Shown here in pieces: positions 1,479-15,751 of a stretch of DNA of 16,931 bases. Position 1 is the first letter of the stretch. Every line of letters starts with the position of its first letter. A model generated the notes under the pieces. It saw only the letters and a program-made list of their open reading frames with translations. It did not search any database and was not told the origin of the DNA. Origin of the DNA: Bacteriovoracaceae bacterium (GTDB taxonomy: Bacteria; Bdellovibrionota; Bacteriovoracia; Bacteriovoracales; Bacteriovoracaceae); the NCBI GenBank assembly GCA_041586955.1, contig JBFGZE010000076.1, forward strand, positions 1 to 16,931. Reading direction: 5' to 3'. Made by a program: the position numbers and the translations under genes.

Positions 1479-4004
1479 TTAGCCCTTTCCCTCTGTCGGA
1501 TCCATAGGCCAATAATGCTTAGGGTATCTGCCGGCCAATTCTTTTCGAACTTCAAAATAGTTTTTTTTCCAAAACTGAGACAAATTATTGGTCACCTGTG
1601 CTGCTCGACCATTGGGTGCCAAAAGTTCAATGGTCAAAGCGTATTGACCAAGGCCCAACAGAGGGCAAAAGTCCTCTCCTAATAACGCTTGAAGATACAC
1701 CGATATTTTAGGTCTCAAAAAATGGTCATAGAGGACCTTTACCCCTTTACCATTTGGTAATTTTAGAAAAATGGGTGCTTCCTTGTCGATAAAGTCTTTT
1801 TGGGCCTCATCCATAAGCATAAAAAAATAATCTTGTACAAGATCGTCCTTCCATTTATCAACTTTATTATAATCATCATATATAAGTTCCAAAATAGAAC
1901 GTATTTCTTCTTTATTAACCTTAGGGTCTAATTGAGGTAATGAAATTTGTGGACAATATTTATTAAGGAAAAGTAACCGTAAATGTAGGAGATTTAGCGC
2001 AGGAAACTTAAGCAAAAATTGATCCCAATCTGAAATAATAAGATTAATCGCCTTTTCTTTTTTCTCTTGTGGTGATAAACGAAGAGGCCGCAATTTCGAA
2101 ACGGGTATCCCCATAAAACAATCGGCTTCCTTCTCAATAGAAAGACCATTTCTATCGTCATAAATTATTTTTTCAATGGTTAATCGGTCTTTAAAATAGT
2201 GGCGAATCCAACTGGCCTCAATTTTAGAGGCGAAACTAACTTGGGCCTCAGCTTTGGGCCGATTGCTTAGGTTAGTAGGATTTAGACCCAGAAAATAGGA
2301 TCCTGATTTGACACAAGAAAATTCCGATAAAATAACCCCTCGTCCTCCTAACATCTTGCCTTTAAAGGGTTTATTTTTTCGACGCTCTACCAAGCGATCA
2401 GGATAAGAAAGTAATAATAATTGAGCGAGATCAAAATCTCGCCCTTTTAAATAAGGAAGGATCTCAATAGATTTTCCTTGAATGACTTTCCTCATCTTTA
2501 ATAATGCTTGGTAACTTTTATTAACTCTTTTAAGATGAGACGAGTTTACTTCATTTTTACCATAATACTGACGGTCTTTAAAAATTCCCAGACGGTAAGC
2601 AATATCACAATTAGCTTGATCAAATTCTTGATCAGGAGACACTTTCTTAATAATATCCCCGCCTTCTAATAAAGACGCCATTAAGGCCGCGTCTTCAAAA
2701 TGACCGCTATGATACCCATGAATGAGAAGGCTTCCCTGCCGGTGGCCACAATTTAAAGAAGCGAGAAGGCGACCAAAAGGCGTTAAATAATTCAGCTTGA
2801 GTGCGCCCATTAATTCCAAAACCTTTAACGAATAGACCTCAGACTCTTGTGTCCACCTTGTCGGGAATTCAAGCGGTTCCTCTGCTGGAAGAAGAGTCAT
2901 TAATAAAAGCATAAGATCAGTTAAATCCGTTCTTAAAATTTCCGGTGCTTGAAAATCATTCATGCGGCGGTGGTCAACTTTAGTCCATAAACGAAAACAT
3001 ATTCCCTTATGCTGGCGGGCAGCTCTCCCTGCCCGCTGATCGGCCGAGGCCTTAGATATTCTTTGCAAGCTTAATTGATCAACACCGACTTCCGAATCAA
3101 ATCTCATCACCTTAGCAAGTCCACTATCAACAATGATTTGAACCCCTTCAACTGTTAATGAAGATTCGGCAATATTTGTTGCTAAGATAATTTTACGACG
3201 GGATCCCTTATAGACTGCCTTATCTTGATCCTTTTGCGGAAGCTGCCCATGTAGTGGAAAAATGTCCAAATCGAGTTCCATGGTCAATAAGATTTTACGT
3301 AATCTTTCAATCTCTCCGGCACCAGGGAGAAAGGCCAATACATCGCCCTGATAGTCGGAATGCGAAAGGGCCTCCTTAATAGTTATTGCCATTGTTTCAT
3401 AGAAGTCTTGCGGCCGATTATAATTAAGAGATAATTCCCTATGATAAACTTCTAAGGGATATAATTGCCCGTTTGCCTGAATTATAGGAGCATTGTCAAA
3501 AAATTGCGAGACAAACTCAACATTAATTGTTGCCGACATAATCACAATTTTCAAATCGGGTCTTCTTGTCCGCCGCAAATATTTAATCCATGCCGCCGCA
3601 AAGTCTGTATGAAGATTGCGTTCATGAAATTCATCCAAAATGACAATACCAAAGCCATCCAAATTATTATTAAATTGGATTAATTTAGTGAACAGGCCTT
3701 CTGTTAAAACTTGAAGTTTTGTATCAGCTCCAATTTGACGATCAAAACGCACGGCATATCCTACTTCTTTGGCAACAGTCCAATTATTCTCCATAGCAAT
3801 TCGCTCGCAAGATAAACGGGCGGCCATTCTTCTCGGTTGTAGGAGCGCAATCTTCTGGTCAGTTAATTGGCAAAGAGCTGGAGGAATGCGAGTCGTTTTA
3901 CCAGAACCCGGAGGAGAAGAAATCACGACTACTCCCTGTTTCTCGAGAAGAGTTATAATCCGGGGTAAAAGAGAATCAATGGGAAGTGTCGGCCTTAAAG
4001 TCAT
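1479..4004 (-). CDS. hrpB: ATP-dependent DEAH-box RNA helicase HrpB
   Basis: Motifs GSGKTT, DEFHER, MSAT, ATNIAESSLT and QRAGRAAR, plus the HrpB-type C-terminus LLAPNGRAAQVT...FW...Y.EVRKELAGRYPKHYWP; 841 aa; AGGA upstream of the ATG. Confidence 0.95.
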   Translation of the reverse strand: MTLRPTLPIDSLLPRIITLLEKQGVVVISSPPGSGKTTRIPPALCQLTDQKIALLQPRRMAARLSCERIAMENNWTVAKEVGYAVRFDRQIGADTKLQVLTEGLFTKLIQFNNNLDGFGIVILDEFHERNLHTDFAAAWIKYLRRTRRPDLKIVIMSATINVEFVSQFFDNAPIIQANGQLYPLEVYHRELSLNYNRPQDFYETMAITIKEALSHSDYQGDVLAFLPGAGEIERLRKILLTMELDLDIFPLHGQLPQKDQDKAVYKGSRRKIILATNIAESSLTVEGVQIIVDSGLAKVMRFDSEVGVDQLSLQRISKASADQRAGRAARQHKGICFRLWTKVDHRRMNDFQAPEILRTDLTDLMLLLMTLLPAEEPLEFPTRWTQESEVYSLKVLELMGALKLNYLTPFGRLLASLNCGHRQGSLLIHGYHSGHFEDAALMASLLEGGDIIKKVSPDQEFDQANCDIAYRLGIFKDRQYYGKNEVNSSHLKRVNKSYQALLKMRKVIQGKSIEILPYLKGRDFDLAQLLLLSYPDRLVERRKNKPFKGKMLGGRGVILSEFSCVKSGSYFLGLNPTNLSNRPKAEAQVSFASKIEASWIRHYFKDRLTIEKIIYDDRNGLSIEKEADCFMGIPVSKLRPLRLSPQEKKEKAINLIISDWDQFLLKFPALNLLHLRLLFLNKYCPQISLPQLDPKVNKEEIRSILELIYDDYNKVDKWKDDLVQDYFFMLMDEAQKDFIDKEAPIFLKLPNGKGVKVLYDHFLRPKISVYLQALLGEDFCPLLGLGQYALTIELLAPNGRAAQVTNNLSQFWKKNYFEVRKELAGRYPKHYWPMDPTEGKG

Positions 4005-4123: not shown

Positions 4124-5467
4124 ATGAGTTTATTAAGGACCGTTTTTGCTTTAACTTTTTTCACTTATTTTTCAAACTTCTTATTAATTGCTAAAGAAAA
4201 TCACTCCTTTTATTTTATCAATGGGGGAACACTTTCATCCCAAGAAGGTTATGTCATTCCCAAAAATACATATGCACAAATAATGAAGGAAAACTCATGG
4301 TCTGTCACCATTATGGTGTTCAATCAAAAGGGGATCCTCTTAAATAACGGAAGGCCCATAACAATTAGTAAAAAATGGTTCTATAAAGCAAGCACCGACT
4401 TGAGCTTAGAGCATTTTGTCAACCTATTGGCCGAAGGCCTTAATATTGAATCCATTCAACAAAAATACTGTCAAGAATCGGCCAAGCAATTAGGGCCTTT
4501 AAAAAAAGAAGAAATTAAAGCTGGGCCCTTACCCGAAAATAATATGTGGACTTTCTTAACAAAAAATCCAAACGAGTTGGAAAACTTTTATTCTTGTTAC
4601 CAAAAAGATAGATCCGCCCTGAGAGATTATTCTTTATACTTTAGACCAAGTATTACTGAAATCTCAGAGCAATATGCCAAATCATCTGAGGGAATTAACA
4701 GCGAACAAGTTAATGCCATTCTAGGGTGCCTACTTTATCGTGAATCTTCTCATTGGAAAGGAAAAGAGTCACATTCTGGAGCAGTTGGGATTGGACAATT
4801 TACAGGAACTGCTATTAATCGTGTAAAATCGATCCTCACCTTTAAGAGTAAAGATACGTTCCAAGCTCGCCTTGATAGTAGGTATAAAAAGCTAAGGGAA
4901 AAAAAATTATCCGCAACAAAAAGGCGTCAACTCCAGCGAGATATCAATATTATTAATGCAGAAAAAGCACGCTATATGCGTTTTAAAAAGCTTCAACAAT
5001 ATTGGAAACAATTAAACTTAAAAAAGAGACCGGCCGCTAGAAAGCTCAATCATACGTACTTTGCTGATAAAAACAATCACCAGTCAATTATTGCCATGTC
5101 CTCTCTCCTCTTGCTGGACTGTCAAATAGGATTTGAGCAGGCCGAAGTTAAGATGTCTCCCAAAACAGCGCTTTTGGCCTGTGCAGGGGCCTATAACATG
5201 GGGGCCCATGGATTCTTTAAAAACGCAATCAATAAGAGAACCTTAGATCAGCAAAACCTTCAATCATGGATCACTAATCTCGAGAGTTCTCACAGTCCAC
5301 AAAAAAAGGAAACAATCGGGCACCTCATATCTATTCATCGTTGCTCGCAAAAGGAGTCCAATTTTCCACCATGCGGAACAAACCATCATTATTGTAAAAA
5401 TTTACCTTTGACAAATCCTTGTCAATCCCCTGATAGCCTTAAATGCCCTAGGGAGAAATGCCAATGA
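4124..5467 (+). CDS. Secreted lytic transglycosylase-like (SLT/lysozyme-fold) protein
   Basis: N-terminal signal-like hydrophobic segment; SLT motif I (LLYRES, putative catalytic E207), motif II (SGAVGIGQF) and motif III (AGAYNMG); Cys-rich C-terminal tail. Confidence 0.8.
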   Translation: MSLLRTVFALTFFTYFSNFLLIAKENHSFYFINGGTLSSQEGYVIPKNTYAQIMKENSWSVTIMVFNQKGILLNNGRPITISKKWFYKASTDLSLEHFVNLLAEGLNIESIQQKYCQESAKQLGPLKKEEIKAGPLPENNMWTFLTKNPNELENFYSCYQKDRSALRDYSLYFRPSITEISEQYAKSSEGINSEQVNAILGCLLYRESSHWKGKESHSGAVGIGQFTGTAINRVKSILTFKSKDTFQARLDSRYKKLREKKLSATKRRQLQRDINIINAEKARYMRFKKLQQYWKQLNLKKRPAARKLNHTYFADKNNHQSIIAMSSLLLLDCQIGFEQAEVKMSPKTALLACAGAYNMGAHGFFKNAINKRTLDQQNLQSWITNLESSHSPQKKETIGHLISIHRCSQKESNFPPCGTNHHYCKNLPLTNPCQSPDSLKCPREKCQ

Positions 5468-5907: not shown

Positions 5908-7335
5908 TTAACGAGCTGGTGAAAACCAGACATCCCAAACGATTCCATCTTTCTTTTTGCCATTTTGAATGAAGGAGAATGTTCCCTTTTCTCGCACTTC
6001 TGCTCGATGAGAAAACTCAATATGGGCTTTTTGGTAATAAAGACTGATGGCCGAAACTCCCTTTTTCTTCAAGGGCGTCAATTCATTTTTAGAAGATTCA
6101 CCATCACCATTAATATCACGCCACAATAATAACTGAGAATAAACTTTATCTTTTTGATCGATACGATAATCAGCATTATGATCGTGATCTTTTAAACTCT
6201 CGAAGCCATTATCAAAACCATTACCATCTCCAAATAACTCTTTCGCCGATGAAATCCGGCCATCACCATCACGGTCAAGTGCCAATAGATAACCAGGAGC
6301 GCCTTTTTCTACCCAATGTACCACTGCCGCATCAGTGTAAAGAGGAAAGGAGCTACGTCCGCTAAAATTGGGTCTATTCGCATCAAAGAAAAGCATTAAA
6401 GGAGAATAATATGAACCACAAAAACGGTTCATCCCCAAAAAGGAGGGCTTAATATGAAGACATTGCTCAAATTCATTCAACGACTTTTCAATTTTATGAG
6501 TTAATTCGCGAGGCAAACCTTTTGAGTCATTTTGGTAGAAGAGAGTATTAACCAAAGAAGGTTTACCACTCACGAGATACTCTCCAGTCGTCAAATCCCG
6601 AGAAACTGTTCGTTTTTTAATATTCGCCCCGTTGAGTTCAACGATGATCTCTCCGCGTTTTCCATATTTATCTATCCGGCCAATTGACTTGCTAGATGTG
6701 ACTTTAATTTTATTAGAAAAATTTTCAAAACGATCCCTTAAACCACAATTAGCTGTGCCTATTTTTTTCTTATAAGATTTAACAGCGGCATAACCGGTTC
6801 CTGACCAATTATAAAAGAAAAGACAGCTAATCTTCTTGTTAAGCTCACCTTGTTTAGCAAGGTCCATCTCGCGGGTACATGATAGAGTATCATCGAGGAA
6901 CCACTTCGCCCTATTATAAGAACATTTATAGTTCACACTTTTTCCTTCAATTAAACAAGAAACCTTTTCACCACCACCAGTTACCCAAGTACAGCTTTGA
7001 CCATAGTTTTCAGGCCAAACGGATTTGATAGGAAAGGAAATATCGGCGTCAAAGACTTCTCCTTCATTTCGAATTTTCAGAGACATTTTGACATCATCGC
7101 CTTGAGGGTTAAGCGCAATACCGCCACCACGCATATTCGCTCCATAACAAGATGGTCTAATGATCACTTTTAAATACTTGGGATCGGTGCCATCACATCC
7201 TTTCTTTTTATAAACATTACCCAATTGTTTAACATACTCGTTTGGCGCATTTTGAGGGATAATAGAAAATTGCTGCCCGTAGCCAAAACCTGTCAACAAC
7301 GTGGTAAAAGATATTATGATAAATTTAGACCGCAT
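5908..7335 (-). CDS. Secreted Cys-rich protein with C-terminal EF-hand-like Ca2+-binding domain resembling the FrpC self-processing module
   Basis: AGGAG SD; signal peptide MRSKFIIISFTTLLTGFGYG; 10 Cys in the N-terminal ~310 aa; loops DRDGDGRISSAKE, DHNADYRIDQKD and DINGDGESSKNE; motifs PLML, LLALD, ELFGD, NGFESL, LLLWRD and GVSAISL. Confidence 0.8.
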   Translation of the reverse strand: MRSKFIIISFTTLLTGFGYGQQFSIIPQNAPNEYVKQLGNVYKKKGCDGTDPKYLKVIIRPSCYGANMRGGGIALNPQGDDVKMSLKIRNEGEVFDADISFPIKSVWPENYGQSCTWVTGGGEKVSCLIEGKSVNYKCSYNRAKWFLDDTLSCTREMDLAKQGELNKKISCLFFYNWSGTGYAAVKSYKKKIGTANCGLRDRFENFSNKIKVTSSKSIGRIDKYGKRGEIIVELNGANIKKRTVSRDLTTGEYLVSGKPSLVNTLFYQNDSKGLPRELTHKIEKSLNEFEQCLHIKPSFLGMNRFCGSYYSPLMLFFDANRPNFSGRSSFPLYTDAAVVHWVEKGAPGYLLALDRDGDGRISSAKELFGDGNGFDNGFESLKDHDHNADYRIDQKDKVYSQLLLWRDINGDGESSKNELTPLKKKGVSAISLYYQKAHIEFSHRAEVREKGTFSFIQNGKKKDGIVWDVWFSPAR

Positions 7336-7356: not shown

Positions 7357-8337
7357 TCAAGGATTAACTTCTTTCTTTTTATTATCATCTCGATTAAATT
7401 CAACACTGATTGATGGCGAATCAATTGTTTCTCTATAAAAGCTAACCATATTGATATTATGTCCTACAATTTGTGACTTCCATTCTCCAGTTGGCAACTT
7501 TACTTCCCGTAATAATTTCCCAACGAGTACACCATTCTCTTTGATTGTTTGTATTTTATAACGCACAATTTTAACCGCTGAGATAAAGACAAAGTTGCCC
7601 AGCCCCTCGACATAAGGGGCCCTACGCAGCATTTTATCTGATGATGTGATTCTTGTTTTATCGCGTGGATCAATACTAATAAATTGCTTGTCCACATCCT
7701 CTGGGATTAATTTCCCCAAATGCTGATCGCGAGGGACCCACCCCATATAGGCAATTTTGTGGGGCGCCGAACTCCCGTCAGTAAAGTCCTTCACCCGGAT
7801 AGTACGACTAGCATAGAGATAAACTAATTTATTTTTTCTCCATGGTGAATTATATCTTTTTTCAAAAAAGTTCCCATGATTAAGGGATTTAAACTCCAAG
7901 GAATTTTTTGAATAAGCATCGACGGGGTTATACATCAATTCCTCTCCATTCACACCATCAGAAACGATAAAGGAAATGGTCTTACTATAGGCGCCCTCAA
8001 CCGATTCTCGGTACAGATTAAATTCTCTTTTACAATTGGTCACACAGGAAATATCCGAGGTAAAATCAAAAAAATTACGATTCATATCATCTGGTAATGA
8101 AAGGCTATTCAAAGAATGTTTCGCATGAAGAATATCCTCTTTTATTATTTGTTCCGTATAAAGATTATCTAAAGTTTCAATCATATTATCGCGACTGAGG
8201 GATACATCTTTTCTAACAATATCAAAAATTGCTCCACCGGCCATGAAGAGTAGGCCAACCATTGAAGCGGCAACCAACATTTCCACCATCGTAAAACCAT
8301 AATCATTTATTATTTCTTTTGGTTTCATTATTTTCAT
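7357..8337 (-). CDS. Type IV minor pilin/pseudopilin, PilW/GspJ-like (~326 aa)
   Basis: Class III signal peptide G|FTMVEMLVAASMVGLLFMAG with Glu at +5. ATG at 8337 lies 1 nt after the upstream stop; 8349 and 8328 are alternative starts. The PilW-like call rests on size and context. Confidence 0.8.
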   Translation of the reverse strand: MKIMKPKEIINDYGFTMVEMLVAASMVGLLFMAGGAIFDIVRKDVSLSRDNMIETLDNLYTEQIIKEDILHAKHSLNSLSLPDDMNRNFFDFTSDISCVTNCKREFNLYRESVEGAYSKTISFIVSDGVNGEELMYNPVDAYSKNSLEFKSLNHGNFFEKRYNSPWRKNKLVYLYASRTIRVKDFTDGSSAPHKIAYMGWVPRDQHLGKLIPEDVDKQFISIDPRDKTRITSSDKMLRRAPYVEGLGNFVFISAVKIVRYKIQTIKENGVLVGKLLREVKLPTGEWKSQIVGHNINMVSFYRETIDSPSISVEFNRDDNKKKEVNP

Positions 8338-8338
8338 A

Positions 8339-8794
8339 TCATTGACCATTAACCAAGAAGGTGTACTCTTTAAAGGTTTCAATATAACGTGCATGAGTTA
8401 CTTTAATCGTTAACTTATAAAGTCCTCTATAGGTTGTCAGAGGCTCAATAACAAAACCCATACGACCTTCACAAGCTGGGCATTGATCTACGTCAGTTAA
8501 TGTTTTTTCATCCCAGGCCAAAGGCAATTCCTTCATCAACTGGGCCTTAGAAGTCATACTTAAAAACACGCCAGCATTATAATCGACTTGATAAAGAGCA
8601 ACATTATTCTGAATATTGCGGGAAAGTGATAATGCTGCTCTTTCCACACTTAGCTTATTTTCCACATCATTAGAGAAGCGGTTTAGATACTTTGACCCCC
8701 CAATAAGCCCGGTTGCGACAATACCAATAATGGCGAATCCAACCAGCACTTCGACCAGGGTGAACCCATATTCGTTTTGTTTTAAACTTCTCAT
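8339..8794 (-). CDS. Type IV minor pilin, PilV/GspI-like (~151 aa)
   Basis: Class III signal peptide G|FTLVEVLVGFAIIGIVATGLI; ATG at 8794 forms an ATGA overlap with the upstream stop; C-terminal GLYKLTIKVT strand as in PilV/GspI-like proteins. Confidence 0.85.
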   Translation of the reverse strand: MRSLKQNEYGFTLVEVLVGFAIIGIVATGLIGGSKYLNRFSNDVENKLSVERAALSLSRNIQNNVALYQVDYNAGVFLSMTSKAQLMKELPLAWDEKTLTDVDQCPACEGRMGFVIEPLTTYRGLYKLTIKVTHARYIETFKEYTFLVNGQ

Positions 8795-11790
8795 AATGTT
8801 CCCGTCTTTACCCAAATCACTTTGCTCGAAAAGCGTCTATAGCGATTCGGTATTTTTGACCTGGTTGTCACTGCCGATCCCGTTGAAGGAATACCGATTT
8901 CAGGGTCGACTGTTGTCCAATTAAAATTATTGGAGCCGTGAATTACGAATTTCATCGGACTACATGATAAATAATCCGCTTGAACATTATTATTAAGAAA
9001 TGGAGACCAACCTGGCTCATCATCACTAAACTCACATTGGTCTTTTCCCATGGGTCGGCTTTCACGTCTTAAGTGCTTTTTTTCTCGCAAAAGACGAATG
9101 GCATGAGGGTGCCATATACTATAAAAATTGACTCCACTATTTCTTGCGTTCGGAGCAATCGTGAGTTTTTGTAAAATGATAGTTCCAATTATATTAAGCT
9201 CAGAGCGACGAGACTCAATAATCAATTCCTGACATACATAATTTCCAAAAACGAAATCAATATTATTTGGAACAATACACTTTTCAACAATCGATTTTGT
9301 CGGTACCCCGTTATAGAGGTAGGGGTCCATATCTTTTTCATCGAAAGTATGCATCGGAACAGGTTCAACTAATTTAGGGTCTTCAATTGTTACACCTGAG
9401 TGAGTCACGCTATAAAGCCAAGAAAATTTTGTATTTTTTGTAAAGGAAACATCCCATTCCGAAGAAGGTACCCCGTAAAAACCTTTACATTGCTCATCGA
9501 CCTCTTTGGCCCTGGCCGTTGTTATTCCATCTATCGGATAAAGGGTTCCCTTATAACTCCCATTCCAAACTTGTGGAGGCTCATTGCGTTTTGAATCATC
9601 CTTTCGAAGGAGAGCATAAGGTAGACCTTGGATTTTTTTATCAATCTCCTCACTATCGAGAGTGCGAAACTCTCTACGGGCAATATCATAATATATTTGA
9701 TTATATCGGCCATACTCCCACTTTCTTCTATTTGGGCCAGGTAAATGGTCCCAATCAGTTCGCTTACCGGTGCGATAATTATTAGTATTTTCAACAGCAA
9801 AATCAAATGCTACAAAATCCAGGTAAATTCTATTCACAACATTATTTAATAATTTATTATTTAAACTGGATTCATTTTTCATGTGCAATTTAAAATCTAG
9901 TTTATTGGCTAATTTATCCTGAGTCTTCATAACGATAGCTGGTGTAGCATCGACCAATTCCCCAACATCCCTAACCAGATCATCTTGACTTGCTTTAAAT
10001 AACTTCCATTCATTATCAACCATTGACACCGTATTCTCACAACGTGTATCTGTTTTCTCCACTGTTTTTGGTATTTCAACAAAAACTTCGACTTCTTGCT
10101 CGATCTCATTGCCATCTTTATCAATGACTTTAACAATTTCTTTTTTCTTTTCCTTACTCGTCTCTTCTACTCCATATTGGCAATTTGAAACCCCTGTTTG
10201 AGAAAAAGAATCAATCACCTTACGACAAGCTTCATGGTAATATTCGGCCGTCGTGGTTTTTCGCTCCCCCTCCGTAATCATATTTTCGCAATGTCTCTTT
10301 AGCTCATTGTAATGTTTTTCAAAGAGGTAAGGGTCTTTTAGGGCATCAAAGTCAATCTTTTCTTTATCCAGGTAAGATGAATCATCAATATCGACATCTT
10401 CTTTTATTTTTTTAAAGAATGAGACATCAGCAAGCGCAATTTCAAGTTCAGTGTTTCGCCCCATTAATAATTCATTATTGACATTTTTTCTGTCATTTAT
10501 TCCCACATCAATCTTCATAACAGGAGGGACATGTAAGTTATAAGGTGCATAGTGAACATCTAAACGGGCCAGGTATTCCTTATTCCCCTCTTCTTTGACG
10601 ACTCGGATTGCATCTTTATCCTCTTCCCAAAAATTTAAAATTTCTCTAAATTCATTTTTTGCAGAAAGCGCCAATTCATAATCGCCATTAGAGCCTTTTA
10701 TAAAGAGCCGAGAGTCTCTCGTAAGAAAAGGGTTCTCCATCATTTTACGACGGACAATACATATATCCATTAATGAATTTTTTGGATATTTATAACCCTG
10801 GCCAAAGAGGGGTGCCAAGCCTTTATCAAGTTCGGCCTCTAAAGTCACACCACCATTAAACCCATTAAAGGTTGTTAGTTGCCCATTTAATTGATTTGAT
10901 TGACCACCATAGCTCCTAGGGGAAAATAATTTCCCTTCAGATATAATATTTCCACTCCCGATGCGAACATCATCATAAAAACCAACGGGATAGAATCCTT
11001 TTGCCGGAACATAGACATCATTTTCGACATAAGTTTTGCCGAAAAACTTTACACCTTTACTTGCCGGGCTTCCAGTGAAGTTGGCAATATTAAGGTCTCC
11101 CGCTTTGATCACCGCAAATTGATTAAGAGTGCGCGGAAAAAAAGTCACCTCACTTTCTAGCGCAGGATCACCAACAAAATCACCACATCCACTGGTTGTT
11201 AGTTTTTTCATTTTTCCTGTTATCTTAATAAATAAACTTTTTTCATCACCCTTAGGTAAATTTCCTGACACCAGATATCTTCCAATCTTGACGGTAAAGG
11301 AATCCATGCAACGCTTTATTTTGGGAGTTAAAATAAGGTTTAAGGGGTGATTAACTCCAAGTACGGCCAGCGATGAGATGGGTACTTTCTTTTCTATTTT
11401 CATCAATTGCGGAGACCGGTGAATATCTACTTTATAGGTATTTTTATAACTTTCAGCAATTGCATCGGCAGCAACATTGGACCATAATAATCGTTCTAAA
11501 TTAAGGGGATTCAATACCACTTGTTTCATTTCTGTGCCGCCACAGGATTTATCTCTGCCCCAGCTATTATCCATACACCAACGTTCTTTAAGAGCATAAA
11601 CGGTGTAATTTAAAACCCCACGGGTAAATTTCTCCGCCGAATAATTCATATGATAATTTTTTCTTTTACCAGAGAGAGCGTCAACAATGGTATTCATATT
11701 AGTAACAAGAAACACCGACGCCCCTGCGGCCGCAAGAATAGTAAATAGCGAGGCACTCCCCTTTTGTGACTTTATCAAATTAACCAACAT
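8791..11790 (-). CDS. Giant PilX/GspK/ComZ-like pilin-family protein (~999 aa)
   Basis: AAAGGA SD before ATG 11790. N-terminus MLVNLIKSQKG|SASLFTILAAAGASVFLV is a basic leader, Gly and a hydrophobic helix lacking Glu+5, as in PilX/GspK. First gene of an operon with two canonical prepilins. Confidence 0.7.
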   Translation of the reverse strand: MLVNLIKSQKGSASLFTILAAAGASVFLVTNMNTIVDALSGKRKNYHMNYSAEKFTRGVLNYTVYALKERWCMDNSWGRDKSCGGTEMKQVVLNPLNLERLLWSNVAADAIAESYKNTYKVDIHRSPQLMKIEKKVPISSLAVLGVNHPLNLILTPKIKRCMDSFTVKIGRYLVSGNLPKGDEKSLFIKITGKMKKLTTSGCGDFVGDPALESEVTFFPRTLNQFAVIKAGDLNIANFTGSPASKGVKFFGKTYVENDVYVPAKGFYPVGFYDDVRIGSGNIISEGKLFSPRSYGGQSNQLNGQLTTFNGFNGGVTLEAELDKGLAPLFGQGYKYPKNSLMDICIVRRKMMENPFLTRDSRLFIKGSNGDYELALSAKNEFREILNFWEEDKDAIRVVKEEGNKEYLARLDVHYAPYNLHVPPVMKIDVGINDRKNVNNELLMGRNTELEIALADVSFFKKIKEDVDIDDSSYLDKEKIDFDALKDPYLFEKHYNELKRHCENMITEGERKTTTAEYYHEACRKVIDSFSQTGVSNCQYGVEETSKEKKKEIVKVIDKDGNEIEQEVEVFVEIPKTVEKTDTRCENTVSMVDNEWKLFKASQDDLVRDVGELVDATPAIVMKTQDKLANKLDFKLHMKNESSLNNKLLNNVVNRIYLDFVAFDFAVENTNNYRTGKRTDWDHLPGPNRRKWEYGRYNQIYYDIARREFRTLDSEEIDKKIQGLPYALLRKDDSKRNEPPQVWNGSYKGTLYPIDGITTARAKEVDEQCKGFYGVPSSEWDVSFTKNTKFSWLYSVTHSGVTIEDPKLVEPVPMHTFDEKDMDPYLYNGVPTKSIVEKCIVPNNIDFVFGNYVCQELIIESRRSELNIIGTIILQKLTIAPNARNSGVNFYSIWHPHAIRLLREKKHLRRESRPMGKDQCEFSDDEPGWSPFLNNNVQADYLSCSPMKFVIHGSNNFNWTTVDPEIGIPSTGSAVTTRSKIPNRYRRFSSKVIWVKTGTL

Positions 11791-12171
11791 CAAATACTGT
11801 CCTTTACAGAGTCCAATCAATTTCCCGTTCTCAACAACGAAACTGTATTCATGGATTCTTTTATTTTCTCATAGTTATATCGTTTTAGAATTTAGGCGCA
11901 GACTTTTCCCGTCCAGCTTTCTTAACGATTCCCATTATTTTAGTAAGTTATTTGGCTCTATGGATGAGTTACTCGCGCCAAGCCGATAAGAAGTAATCGA
12001 CAGATAAATATGGCATAATCAATTTAACAACGACCCTGTTTTTTGACATTTACGGCCCTGCCCATCAAAAAAGGCATCGCTTCACGATTTATTTTACTTT
12101 AACAGTCTGATTTTTATCGAATTGTTCATTTTTATTTTCTTGAAAGTGGCCTATGCCACATAATAAATTCC

Positions 12172-12746: not shown

Positions 12747-13010
12747 ATGGGTAATAAATTATACGTTGGAAATCTTCCCTACACTATTACATTGGAATCG
12801 CTAAGCGATGCCTTTTCGGTGTGTGGAACTGTCGAATCCGTTAAAATTATCACTGATAGAGAAACTGGTCGAAGCCGTGGTTTTGGTTTTATCGAGATGG
12901 CCTCTGGTGATCAAGCGCAAGAAGCCATTGAGAAATTTAATGGCAATGACTTTAATGGTAGGCCCTTAACCGTTAATGTTGCGAAGCCACAAACACCTAA
13001 ACATAGGTAA
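12747..13010 (+). CDS. RRM (RNP-1) RNA-binding protein
   Basis: RNP2 LYVGNL, RNP1 RGFGFIEM, IITDRETGRS and NGRPLTVNVAKP; strong TAAGGAG SD. Confidence 0.97.
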   Translation: MGNKLYVGNLPYTITLESLSDAFSVCGTVESVKIITDRETGRSRGFGFIEMASGDQAQEAIEKFNGNDFNGRPLTVNVAKPQTPKHR

Positions 13011-13171: not shown

Positions 13172-13756
13172 TTATTCCTGAATAAATTTTTGTAGATGAT
13201 AATAAAGCTCTAACCCAACCCAAGCATCCGTTGCTGCATAGTTTAGCTGGGCCGTTGTCAAGCGTGGCGCTTCCCAATTACTTAATTTGGTTTTTTTAAT
13301 CAATCTTTTACCCATAAAGATCGCCGCCAAAGAACGCAACCCTAAGGTTTTAATCTTTAAGGTTTTGGCATAATCGGCCAGCTCAATAAAGCCACCCGGA
13401 GTAAAGGAATTAATTTTTATCAACCCTTTAATATCATCATGAACAGCGACCCCTACCTTTTTAACAGACTCATCTGCCATCAGGTCTTTCAATTCTCCAT
13501 CAAAAGGAATTTTATTAAGCCGAAATAGAAATGCCGTATCTTTAGTCGATAACTGAAGGAGGCAAATACCATAAGACTCGCCTTTTTTAAAAGAAGGACG
13601 GCTTTCAGTATCAAAGCCAATGACATCCTCTTTTTTAAGTAGACGAATGGCATTAATATATTGTTGTTTATTGACGACTAATTGAATTTTCCCGGGAAAG
13701 GTCAATACAGGAAGCTCGTTAATCTCATCCTTCGTAATCTTTTTTGTAAAATCCAT
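13172..13756 (-). CDS. DEDDy 3'-5' exonuclease (WRN-exo/RNase D-like, stand-alone domain)
   Basis: ExoI GFDTES, LLQLST, ExoII region KVGVAVHDD, GLRSLAAIFMG, SNWE and ExoIII YAATDA. Confidence 0.93.
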   Translation of the reverse strand: MDFTKKITKDEINELPVLTFPGKIQLVVNKQQYINAIRLLKKEDVIGFDTESRPSFKKGESYGICLLQLSTKDTAFLFRLNKIPFDGELKDLMADESVKKVGVAVHDDIKGLIKINSFTPGGFIELADYAKTLKIKTLGLRSLAAIFMGKRLIKKTKLSNWEAPRLTTAQLNYAATDAWVGLELYYHLQKFIQE

Positions 13757-13897: not shown

Positions 13898-15484
13898 CTA
13901 GGCCTTAGACTTTAGGTATTCGTCATAAGTCGTTTCTTTATCTTCCACCAATTTCACATCAATTTCGATAATTCGATTGGCCACGGTTTGTACTAATTCA
14001 TGGTCATGAGAGGTAAAAATCATCGTACCTTTATAGCGCTTTAGCCCCTCATTGACAGCAGTGATACTCTCTAGGTCCAAGTGATTGGTCGGCCCATCAA
14101 GGAGAAGGACATTGGCCCCTGAAAGCATCATTTTAGAGAGCATACAACGAACTTTCTCACCACCTGATAAAACATTCGTTTTCTTTAAGGCTTCCTCTCC
14201 TGAAAAGAGCATCTTGCCTAAAAAACCTCGAATAAAGCTTTCGTCTTTATCTTCTGAATATTGACGAAGCCAGTTCACAAGATCATATTTCCCATCTTCA
14301 AAGTACTTAGAATTATCAGTTGGAATATAGGATTGAGTCGTCGTCACTCCCCATTCATAGGTGCCGGAATCCGCTTTTGACTCTCCAGAGAGAATATCGA
14401 GTAAAGCGGTCTGGGCCTGATCGTTATCTCCAAGAAGAACGACTTTATCGCCTTTATTAAGCGTAAAGCTAATATTGTCGAGAATTTTTACTCCCTCAAT
14501 AGTTTTAGAAATGCCATTGACCCGTAAAATTTCCTTACCCGCTTCTCTTTTGGGTTCAAAATTAACAAAAGGATAGCGGCGACTGGAAGTCGGAAGATCA
14601 TTTAATTCTAGTCTTTCTAATTGCTTTTGGCGTGAAGTGGCCTGCTTAGACTTTGAAGCATTAGCGCTAAAGCGCTGAATAAAGGCCTTTAATTCTTTGG
14701 CCTTATCTTCAGACTTTTTATTTTGGTCTGCTCTTAATCTTTGCGCTAACTCGCTCGAAGTGCGCCAAAAATCATAATTGCCAGCAAAAGTGGTAATTTT
14801 TCCAAAGTCAATATCAGCAATATGAGTACATACTTTATTAAGAAAATGCCTATCATGGGATACCACAATGACAGTGTTTTTAAAGTCTAATAAGAAATTT
14901 TCAAGCCATTGAATGGCCCTAATATCTAAATGGTTGGTAGGCTCATCTAAAAGGAGAACATCAGGAGAACCAAAAAGCGCCTGGGCCAATAAGACCTTCA
15001 CTTTTTCTCCACCAGTTAGCTCCTTCATCGAGCGCTCATAATAATCAGCACCAATTCCAAGGCCTGCCAATAAAATACCGGCTTCAGACTCAGCTTCCCA
15101 ACCATTCATTTCAGCAAAATCAGCTTCTAATTCGGAGGCCTTAATCCCATCCTCATCAGAGAAGTCTTCTTTTGCATAAATGGCATCTTTCTCTTCCATT
15201 ATTTTAAATAATTTTTCATTGCCCATTAAAACGGTTTTAAGGACAGGGTACTCATCATAAGCAAAATGATCCTGCTTTAAGATTGAGAGCCGCTGACCAG
15301 CAGTAATATTAACTGAGCCACTTTGCGGCTCAATCTCACCCGATAAAATTTTAATAAAAGTTGATTTACCAGCACCATTGGCGCCAATTAAACCGTAGCA
15401 ATTGCCAGGGGTGAATTTAATATTTACTTCATCAAATAATTTGCGCCCGCCAAAACCTAGGCCGACATTAGATGCACTGATCAT
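13898..15484 (-). CDS. ABC-F family ribosome-associated ATPase (YbiT/YkpA-like)
   Basis: Two ABC domains and no TM segments: GANGAGKST, LTGGEK, LLLDEPTNHLD, VSHDRHFL, a linker, LSGGEK and TSHDHE. ATG at 15484 with GAGG SD is preferred over TTG 15496. Confidence 0.95.
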   Translation of the reverse strand: MISASNVGLGFGGRKLFDEVNIKFTPGNCYGLIGANGAGKSTFIKILSGEIEPQSGSVNITAGQRLSILKQDHFAYDEYPVLKTVLMGNEKLFKIMEEKDAIYAKEDFSDEDGIKASELEADFAEMNGWEAESEAGILLAGLGIGADYYERSMKELTGGEKVKVLLAQALFGSPDVLLLDEPTNHLDIRAIQWLENFLLDFKNTVIVVSHDRHFLNKVCTHIADIDFGKITTFAGNYDFWRTSSELAQRLRADQNKKSEDKAKELKAFIQRFSANASKSKQATSRQKQLERLELNDLPTSSRRYPFVNFEPKREAGKEILRVNGISKTIEGVKILDNISFTLNKGDKVVLLGDNDQAQTALLDILSGESKADSGTYEWGVTTTQSYIPTDNSKYFEDGKYDLVNWLRQYSEDKDESFIRGFLGKMLFSGEEALKKTNVLSGGEKVRCMLSKMMLSGANVLLLDGPTNHLDLESITAVNEGLKRYKGTMIFTSHDHELVQTVANRIIEIDVKLVEDKETTYDEYLKSKA

Positions 15485-15751
15485 TAAGAACCTCAAAAAT
15501 TGGAATCAATATTGACTTCTCTTTTACACAAAGTGTTATGAATAGACAAGCGCTTCTATCTCTTGGGCCAATTAATGCTCCGATGCAATTATTTTGCAAG
15601 CGACTAATAGCGCCTTATCTTTAAAGGTAAAAACACCTAACACCATGAATCATGGTTCCCCCTTTTCTTCAAAGCGACCCTATAATAAAAACCTTATTAT
15701 TCTCCTCATTTAGGGTTATAGTGGGCCGAAATCAATTAATGAGGAAGGTAT

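Follow-up and report, generated by a model that had tools for sequence, protein, structure and literature searches.

Can an FrpC-type self-processing module (SPM) still act on itself when serine replaces the aspartate of its scissile Asp-Pro bond, and what could such a module do beside genes for pilins? The question is raised by a gene for a 475-amino-acid protein (5908..7335; this gene and its cassette lie on the reverse strand) in the window analysed here, a 16,931-nucleotide stretch of the genome of a predatory marine bacterium of the Bacteriovoracaceae. The protein comprises a signal peptide, a disulfide-rich beta-sandwich domain, a Ser-Pro junction and a C-terminal domain of the SPM fold. 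A likely Sec signal peptide was judged by eye from the sequence and covers residues ~1-20 (7276..7335). Gln21 is kept in 32 of 33 close homologues, and export via Sec is likely. The N-terminal all-beta domain (residues ~45-305; 6421..7203) is weakly Ig/CnaB-like and carries a conserved C63-Y-G-A-N-M-R motif. Cys63 (7147..7149), the probable disulfide partner of Cys306, is kept in all 56 close homologues. The number of cysteines is even in 50 of 53 countable homologous proteins, six of these having just two. The even counts and the invariance of C63 and C306 suggest that the cysteines form disulfides and are not reactive groups, and a C63-C306 disulfide is likely. Neither sequence inspection nor a family search revealed RTX repeats or an RTX family match in the 475 residues, in agreement with the earlier note, which had described the protein as free of such repeats.

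The C-terminal part (residues 312-475; 5911..6402) belongs to the FrpC-type SPM fold family. Comparison with the SPM structure 6SJW gave a match at the level of both sequence and fold, and Pfam family PF26745, a precomputed annotation on protein P0001, covers the domain. This bears out the homology and collinear register that the earlier note had claimed, together with its two more specific points, a Ser-for-Asp junction and a degraded first DxDGDG motif. Within the junction C306-G-S-Y-Y310-S311-P312 (6400..6420), S311 aligns with FrpC D414 and P312 with P415; the residue before the proline is Ser311 and not the clip-and-link aspartate, and the protein falls outside the Asp clip-and-link functional class. 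The calcium site of FrpC D419/D421/D423 (6376..6390) is lost and its partner D456 corresponds to G348, which leaves the fourth calcium site of FrpC (DxDxDG plus D456) absent; position 316 within the lost site is Phe in 73 of 80 cassette-type domains.

The rest of the module is present at the sequence level, with three sequential EF-hand-like loops and a Trp pair. Loop 1 (D354-E366, FrpC D462-E474; 6238..6276) is intact here, though eroded in part of the SPM family, and is followed by loop 2 (D385-D396; 6148..6183) and loop 3 (D407-E418; 6082..6117). W341 (6313..6315; FrpC W451) belongs to the port and pairs with W405 (FrpC W519). The port residues L367, G369, D370 and G377 (6205..6237) correspond to FrpC L475, G477, D478 and G491. 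The last strand, D468-V-W-F471 (5923..5934), is taken as FrpC D579-L582 from the end register of the structural alignment and the family profile; the HMMER alignment ends at FrpC D579 and puts this residue three positions earlier. With this probable match of D468, the narrow-port set W451, L475, G477, G491 and D579 and the ligand D478 are all represented (W341, L367, G369, G377, D468 and D370). Both glycines are retained in 79 of the 80 cassette-type domains, which also show hardly any variation in Ser, Pro, the other port residues, the two Trp and loops 2 and 3.

Compared with the SPMs of FrpC and A. pleuropneumoniae ApxIVA (PDB 6SJW, 6SJX; PMC7078468), the protein thus shares the fold, the N-terminal Pro register, the three loops, the Trp pair, the port, the D478 and D579 equivalents and an aromatic residue before the junction residue. 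It differs in having Ser for the reactive Asp, in lacking the fourth calcium site, and in that the module is C-terminal, RTX repeats are missing, export is likely Sec-dependent and pilins are encoded alongside instead of FrpD.

The SPM gene is the last of four co-oriented genes. The first encodes a 1009-amino-acid protein with a pilin-like N-terminus that lacks Glu5 (8791..11820; probably in the PilK/PilX-like position), the second a small prepilin of 158 amino acids (8339..8815; PilI/PilV-like position; PF07963, E 3.3e-8; TIGR02532), and the third a mid-sized prepilin of 345 amino acids (7357..8394; PilJ/PilW-like position), which matches TIGR02532 above cut-off, is placed by synteny and probably starts later than its open reading frame. 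Gly21 of the 1009-residue protein is nearly invariant among 46 homologues, and searches of Pfam, NCBIfam and PDB returned no match, or in the last case no significant one. An Asp-Pro in this protein (W-T-T-V-D-P, residues 968-973) is invariant in 46 of 46 aligned homologues; it is probably a turn, because the residues that follow do not fit the first strand of an SPM.

A cassette gene adjoins the SPM gene in 75 of 78 related loci, and the remaining three end near the gene. The mid-sized pilin gene lies directly upstream in 70 loci, and the order is permuted in five (L004, L005, L024, L029, L070), with the SPM gene before the large pilin gene. Some Bdellovibrio genomes carry the whole cassette in tandem copies (L044, L048, L066, L072). 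One cassette was found in the present genome, which is 88% complete; ten more prepilin-like genes lie on G000 contigs C6, C20, C22, C27, C30, C39, C64 and C157, their match being limited to the N-terminal pilin segment. Convergent with the cassette is a gene for a likely secreted 447-amino-acid protein (4124-5467, forward strand) with a weak lysozyme-like match below cut-off (PF18013, E 0.0012). Ordinary neighbours are a PAS histidine kinase (21-1463, forward), an HrpB helicase (1479-4004, reverse), an RNA-binding regulator (12747-13010, forward), a 3'-5' exonuclease-like protein (13172-13756, reverse) and an ABC-F ATPase (13898-15496, reverse).

Sizes and order of the four genes agree with the B. 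bacteriovorus operons Bd2209-2212 and Bd2723-2726, as far as these are described in the portions covered of PMC12034629 and PMC6561027. From size, order and the labels of the named B. bacteriovorus loci we infer that the 475-residue protein is the counterpart of Bd2209 and Bd2723, although it has a longer N-terminal domain with eight extra cysteines. The named B. bacteriovorus genomes contain two such cassettes each (L069/L071 and L012/L049), all with Ser-Pro. In the same portions, Bd2209 is labelled 'frpC' in a STRING-derived table and AlphaFold-Multimer complexes of the four proteins reach ipTM values of 0.85 and 0.84 for the two operons (both PMC12034629), and no discussion of the SPM, its junction or its processing was found in either report. 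According to the part of PMC6561027 covered, Tn-seq insertions in Bd2210 and Bd2211 have a fitness near 0.001, and Bd2210 is attachment-defective. Bd2209 insertions scored 0.077 in the full screen but 1.56 on validation, where the neutral control stood at 1.80, and those in Bd2723 0.083 and then 0.84; Bd2209::tn still killed prey, and its predation defect did not validate. The pilins thus matter for attachment, but for loss of the SPM gene by itself no defect has been validated; it is possible that the paralogous cassette covers for the loss of Bd2209. Similar to the PilIJK plus PilC/PilY1 tip complexes, as presented in the part of PMC12918778 covered, the cassette combines three minor-pilin-like genes with one for a non-pilin secreted, calcium-binding protein, but this partner is a beta-sandwich with an SPM and not a PilY1 beta-propeller, and the protein in the PilK position is ~1000 residues long.

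To characterise the junction across the family, we tabulated the residue before the proline, which is Ser in 56 of 56 top homologues. When 251 genomes of the phylum were searched with a query from which the junction was absent, 82 of them matched, at 140 places with 138 distinct domains, most of which sit C-terminally on unrelated proteins. Among these domains, the junction residue is Ser in 125 and Asp in eight, three being probably mislocated and two unassigned; the Ser codons are TCN in 83 and AGY in 42 of the 125. A profile starting at the Pro matched 28,279 protein clusters at 50% identity, of which the best 150 were taken as a sample, and 120 listed out of a further 316 profile matches were added. 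All fetched domains with a locatable Pro amounted to 681, or 557 after dereplication at 80% identity, a pool that is shaped by the queries used and is not a census; 64 protein domains and two genome domains, mostly later tandem repeats, were dropped for want of a locatable Pro.

The junction alphabet differs with the state of the port. The 373 port-intact domains of the 557, in which the G369 and G377 equivalents are kept, have S in 250, D in 81, T in 20, P in 10, C in three and other residues in nine cases, and A and N in none. By comparison, the 184 domains that have lost one or both glycines show A in 58, S in 41, P in 38, T in 15, L in 10, D in eight and others in 14. Most of them are repeats, in tandem or at the C-terminus, of giant RTX proteins; P0247-P0395 have, close to their C-terminus, two to four SPM-like repeats that have lost the port glycines and carry Ala, Pro or Ser before the Pro. 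Such repeats likely represent a non-cleaving pseudo-SPM class. FastTree trees gave a corresponding picture. On the port-intact tree (369 domains, four doubtful junctions omitted), 46 junction changes were counted over a length of 173, including S-T 20, D-S 16 and C-S/T 3, and none of the 46 involved Ala or Asn. Asp and Asn swap freely within the calcium loops of the same domains. On the port-broken tree, 39 of 67 changes over a length of 82.5 involve Ala. Independent-pair tests had five to seven supported pairs and gave nothing significant; for port against D/S/T/C, 0.8 pairs behaved as expected and 1.2 in the opposite way.

The Ser form is widespread among bacteria. Within the samples drawn it is the majority form, and it is also found in FrpC-like RTX proteins: the internal position of RTX proteins typical of FrpC holds 20 Ser/Cys and 46 Asp forms. 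Ser/Thr/Cys forms together outnumber Asp forms in these samples, and many end non-RTX secreted proteins. The cargo of one Ser form is homologous to that of an Asp form (L192/L157, 37% over 235 amino acids), while some RTX cargo matches between the two forms may be repeat-driven. P0252, P0282, P0299, P0315 and P0317 form a group of port-intact domains with a Pro-Pro junction. In P0134-P0138, a Ser-type SPM comes right after a signal peptide and a short Cys-bearing stub, with 100-240 more residues downstream.

Together, these data lead us to favour, tentatively and at somewhat less than even chance, the reading that the SPM-fold protein encoded beside three pilin-like genes is a calcium-triggered self-processing pilus-tip subunit that acts via an N-to-O acyl shift at Ser311. 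The protein would be exported by Sec, and the SPM would fold on calcium outside the cell and strain the junction, as modelled for FrpC. The Ser311 hydroxyl could then attack the preceding Tyr310 carbonyl through a five-membered ring and form an ester; the upstream bond is proposed because Ser could reach its own carbonyl only through a four-membered ring. Asp468 would be a likely hydrogen-bond or base partner of Ser311; its equivalent hardly varies in Ser/Thr/Cys forms, but it is also ~94% conserved in Ala/Pro repeats and may be structural. The ester might then be hydrolysed, which would release the SPM, or pass to an amine or hydroxyl that a neighbour or the prey surface presents, which would leave the disulfide-stapled N-terminal domain covalently attached to the acceptor. 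Docking on the pilin complex is suggested by the published AlphaFold-Multimer model of the Bdellovibrio operons. The proposed chemistry is that of inteins, Hedgehog Hint, GAIN, SEA and Ntn hydrolase domains, which autoprocess by acyl shift. The junction residues would fit the Ser/Thr/Cys alphabet of these domains but would fit a capping role too, and the SPM resembles Hint domains in its C-terminal place behind unrelated cargoes; its fold is unrelated to theirs, and no His/Asn catalytic motif was seen. From peptide chemistry, an X-Cys-Pro acyl shift trapped by diketopiperazine formation is described in the part of PMC11284063 covered, but it depends on an activated Pro carbonyl and gives no more than a lead.

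The earlier note, whose interpretation is partly supported, had offered a non-cleaving calcium switch and altered Ser chemistry as alternatives. The comparative data shift weight towards a possible Ser chemistry, because Ser, Thr, Cys and Asp dominate wherever both port glycines are retained. For the Ser form, the Asp anhydride route is excluded. Nearly as likely as the Ser311 acyl shift, and likewise below even chance, is a non-cleaving calcium-binding domain in which the Ser311 hydroxyl caps a turn, by a hydrogen bond to Asp468 or the backbone or as a calcium ligand, and forms a rigid joint; at the pilus tip, the SPM would then be a domain for folding, docking or adhesion that depends on calcium. 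Known SPM chemistry requires Asp, D468 is retained in all non-Asp classes, and entire groups of SPM repeats evidently do not cleave. Before Pro, moreover, Asp, Ser and Thr are ordinary turn or cap residues, and the absence of Asn could come from selection against unwanted succinimide cleavage. The ten port-intact Pro-Pro domains, which have no nucleophile, count against the Ser route, as do the Cys at its 0.8% background frequency before Pro (3/373, two of the three in Cys-rich linkers), the stub-like N-termini (only ~20 residues separate signal peptide and Ser junction in P0134 and P0135), the missing validated defect of Bd2209::tn, the lack of significance in the independent-pair tests and, in 42 of 273 forms, a residue unfavourable to acyl shifts (one of Pro, Val, Ile and Thr) before the Ser/Thr/Cys. 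In addition, FrpC is modelled with its twist at Asp-Pro, the next bond downstream from that required here, and D414A abolishes FrpC cleavage, as stated in the part of PMC7846742 covered. A non-cleaving joint leaves unexplained, however, why port-intact lineages never arrive at Ala, although it is a single base away from TCN and common once the port is gone, and why there are at least 16 Asp-Ser switches, each of which would flip a protein between whole and self-cutting. Uncleaved FrpC SPM is reported as ~40 kJ/mol less stable than cleaved (PMC7078468); by losing the port, a non-cleaving domain could escape this cost, as the Ala-tolerant class did. Since the fold tolerates Ala once the port is lost, the simplest reading of a kept port that goes with a required hydroxyl, thiol or carboxyl is a junction still in use.

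Cleavage at Ser311|Pro312 itself is decidedly unlikely. Here calcium would twist this amide in the same way as for FrpC, the attack on the Ser carbonyl would come from Asp468, water or a target amine, and the hydroxyl would serve for positioning alone. This would keep the strained bond where FrpC has it, and the D468 equivalent is stricter in Ser/Thr/Cys forms (Asp in 264/265) than in Asp forms (46/77; 31 non-Asp). Against it, FrpC D579N still cleaves (PMC7078468), so D579 is not catalytic there, and the literature searched offered no precedent. A decayed relic of the Asp-type module would fit the loss of one of four calcium sites and the partial erosion of loop 1, but it is largely refuted by the conservation among the 80 cassette-type domains and the maintenance of Ser through two codon families, and appears very improbable. 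Least credible of all is an attack of Cys306 on the junction to give a thiolactone: a Cys precedes Ser by five residues in 106 of the 125 Ser forms of the phylum, but also occurs there in two of the eight Asp forms, Ser forms of RTX proteins without a nearby Cys exist, and the cysteine counts and C63/C306 pair indicate a disulfide.

The SPM fold and the Bdellovibrio cassette are already known, whereas the Ser-Pro variant of the module appears to be new. The structural description restricted the SPM to RTX proteins and linked it to Asp-Pro (PMC7078468). A Ser-Pro SPM was not found described in the portions covered of the FrpC/SPM, clip-and-link and Bdellovibrio literature, nor in those of PMC12538545, PMC6759196, PMC3034196, PMC12918778 and bioRxiv 10.1101/2025.05.17.654431; the 2004 clip-and-link paper and the supplements to the SPM papers may hold alignments that include Ser forms. 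It may be speculated, though we consider it rather unlikely as a whole, that Ser/Thr/Cys-Pro SPMs form a large class, so far undescribed, of domains that activate themselves when triggered by calcium, acting as a built-in 'sortase' that makes the C-terminus of unrelated secreted cargoes an ester and in predatory Bdellovibrionota arms a pilus-tip subunit bonding covalently to prey, and that the Asp anhydride of FrpC is a repeatedly evolved variant of this older system. If these modules do not self-process, the family still accounts for the origin of clip-and-link in a calcium-binding domain. NeissLock is an existing tool based on the Asp form; if the Ser/Thr/Cys forms self-process, they would provide a new way of ligating proteins on induction and a candidate for the covalent hold of bacterial predators on prey, encoded in an operon whose pilin genes prey attachment needs.
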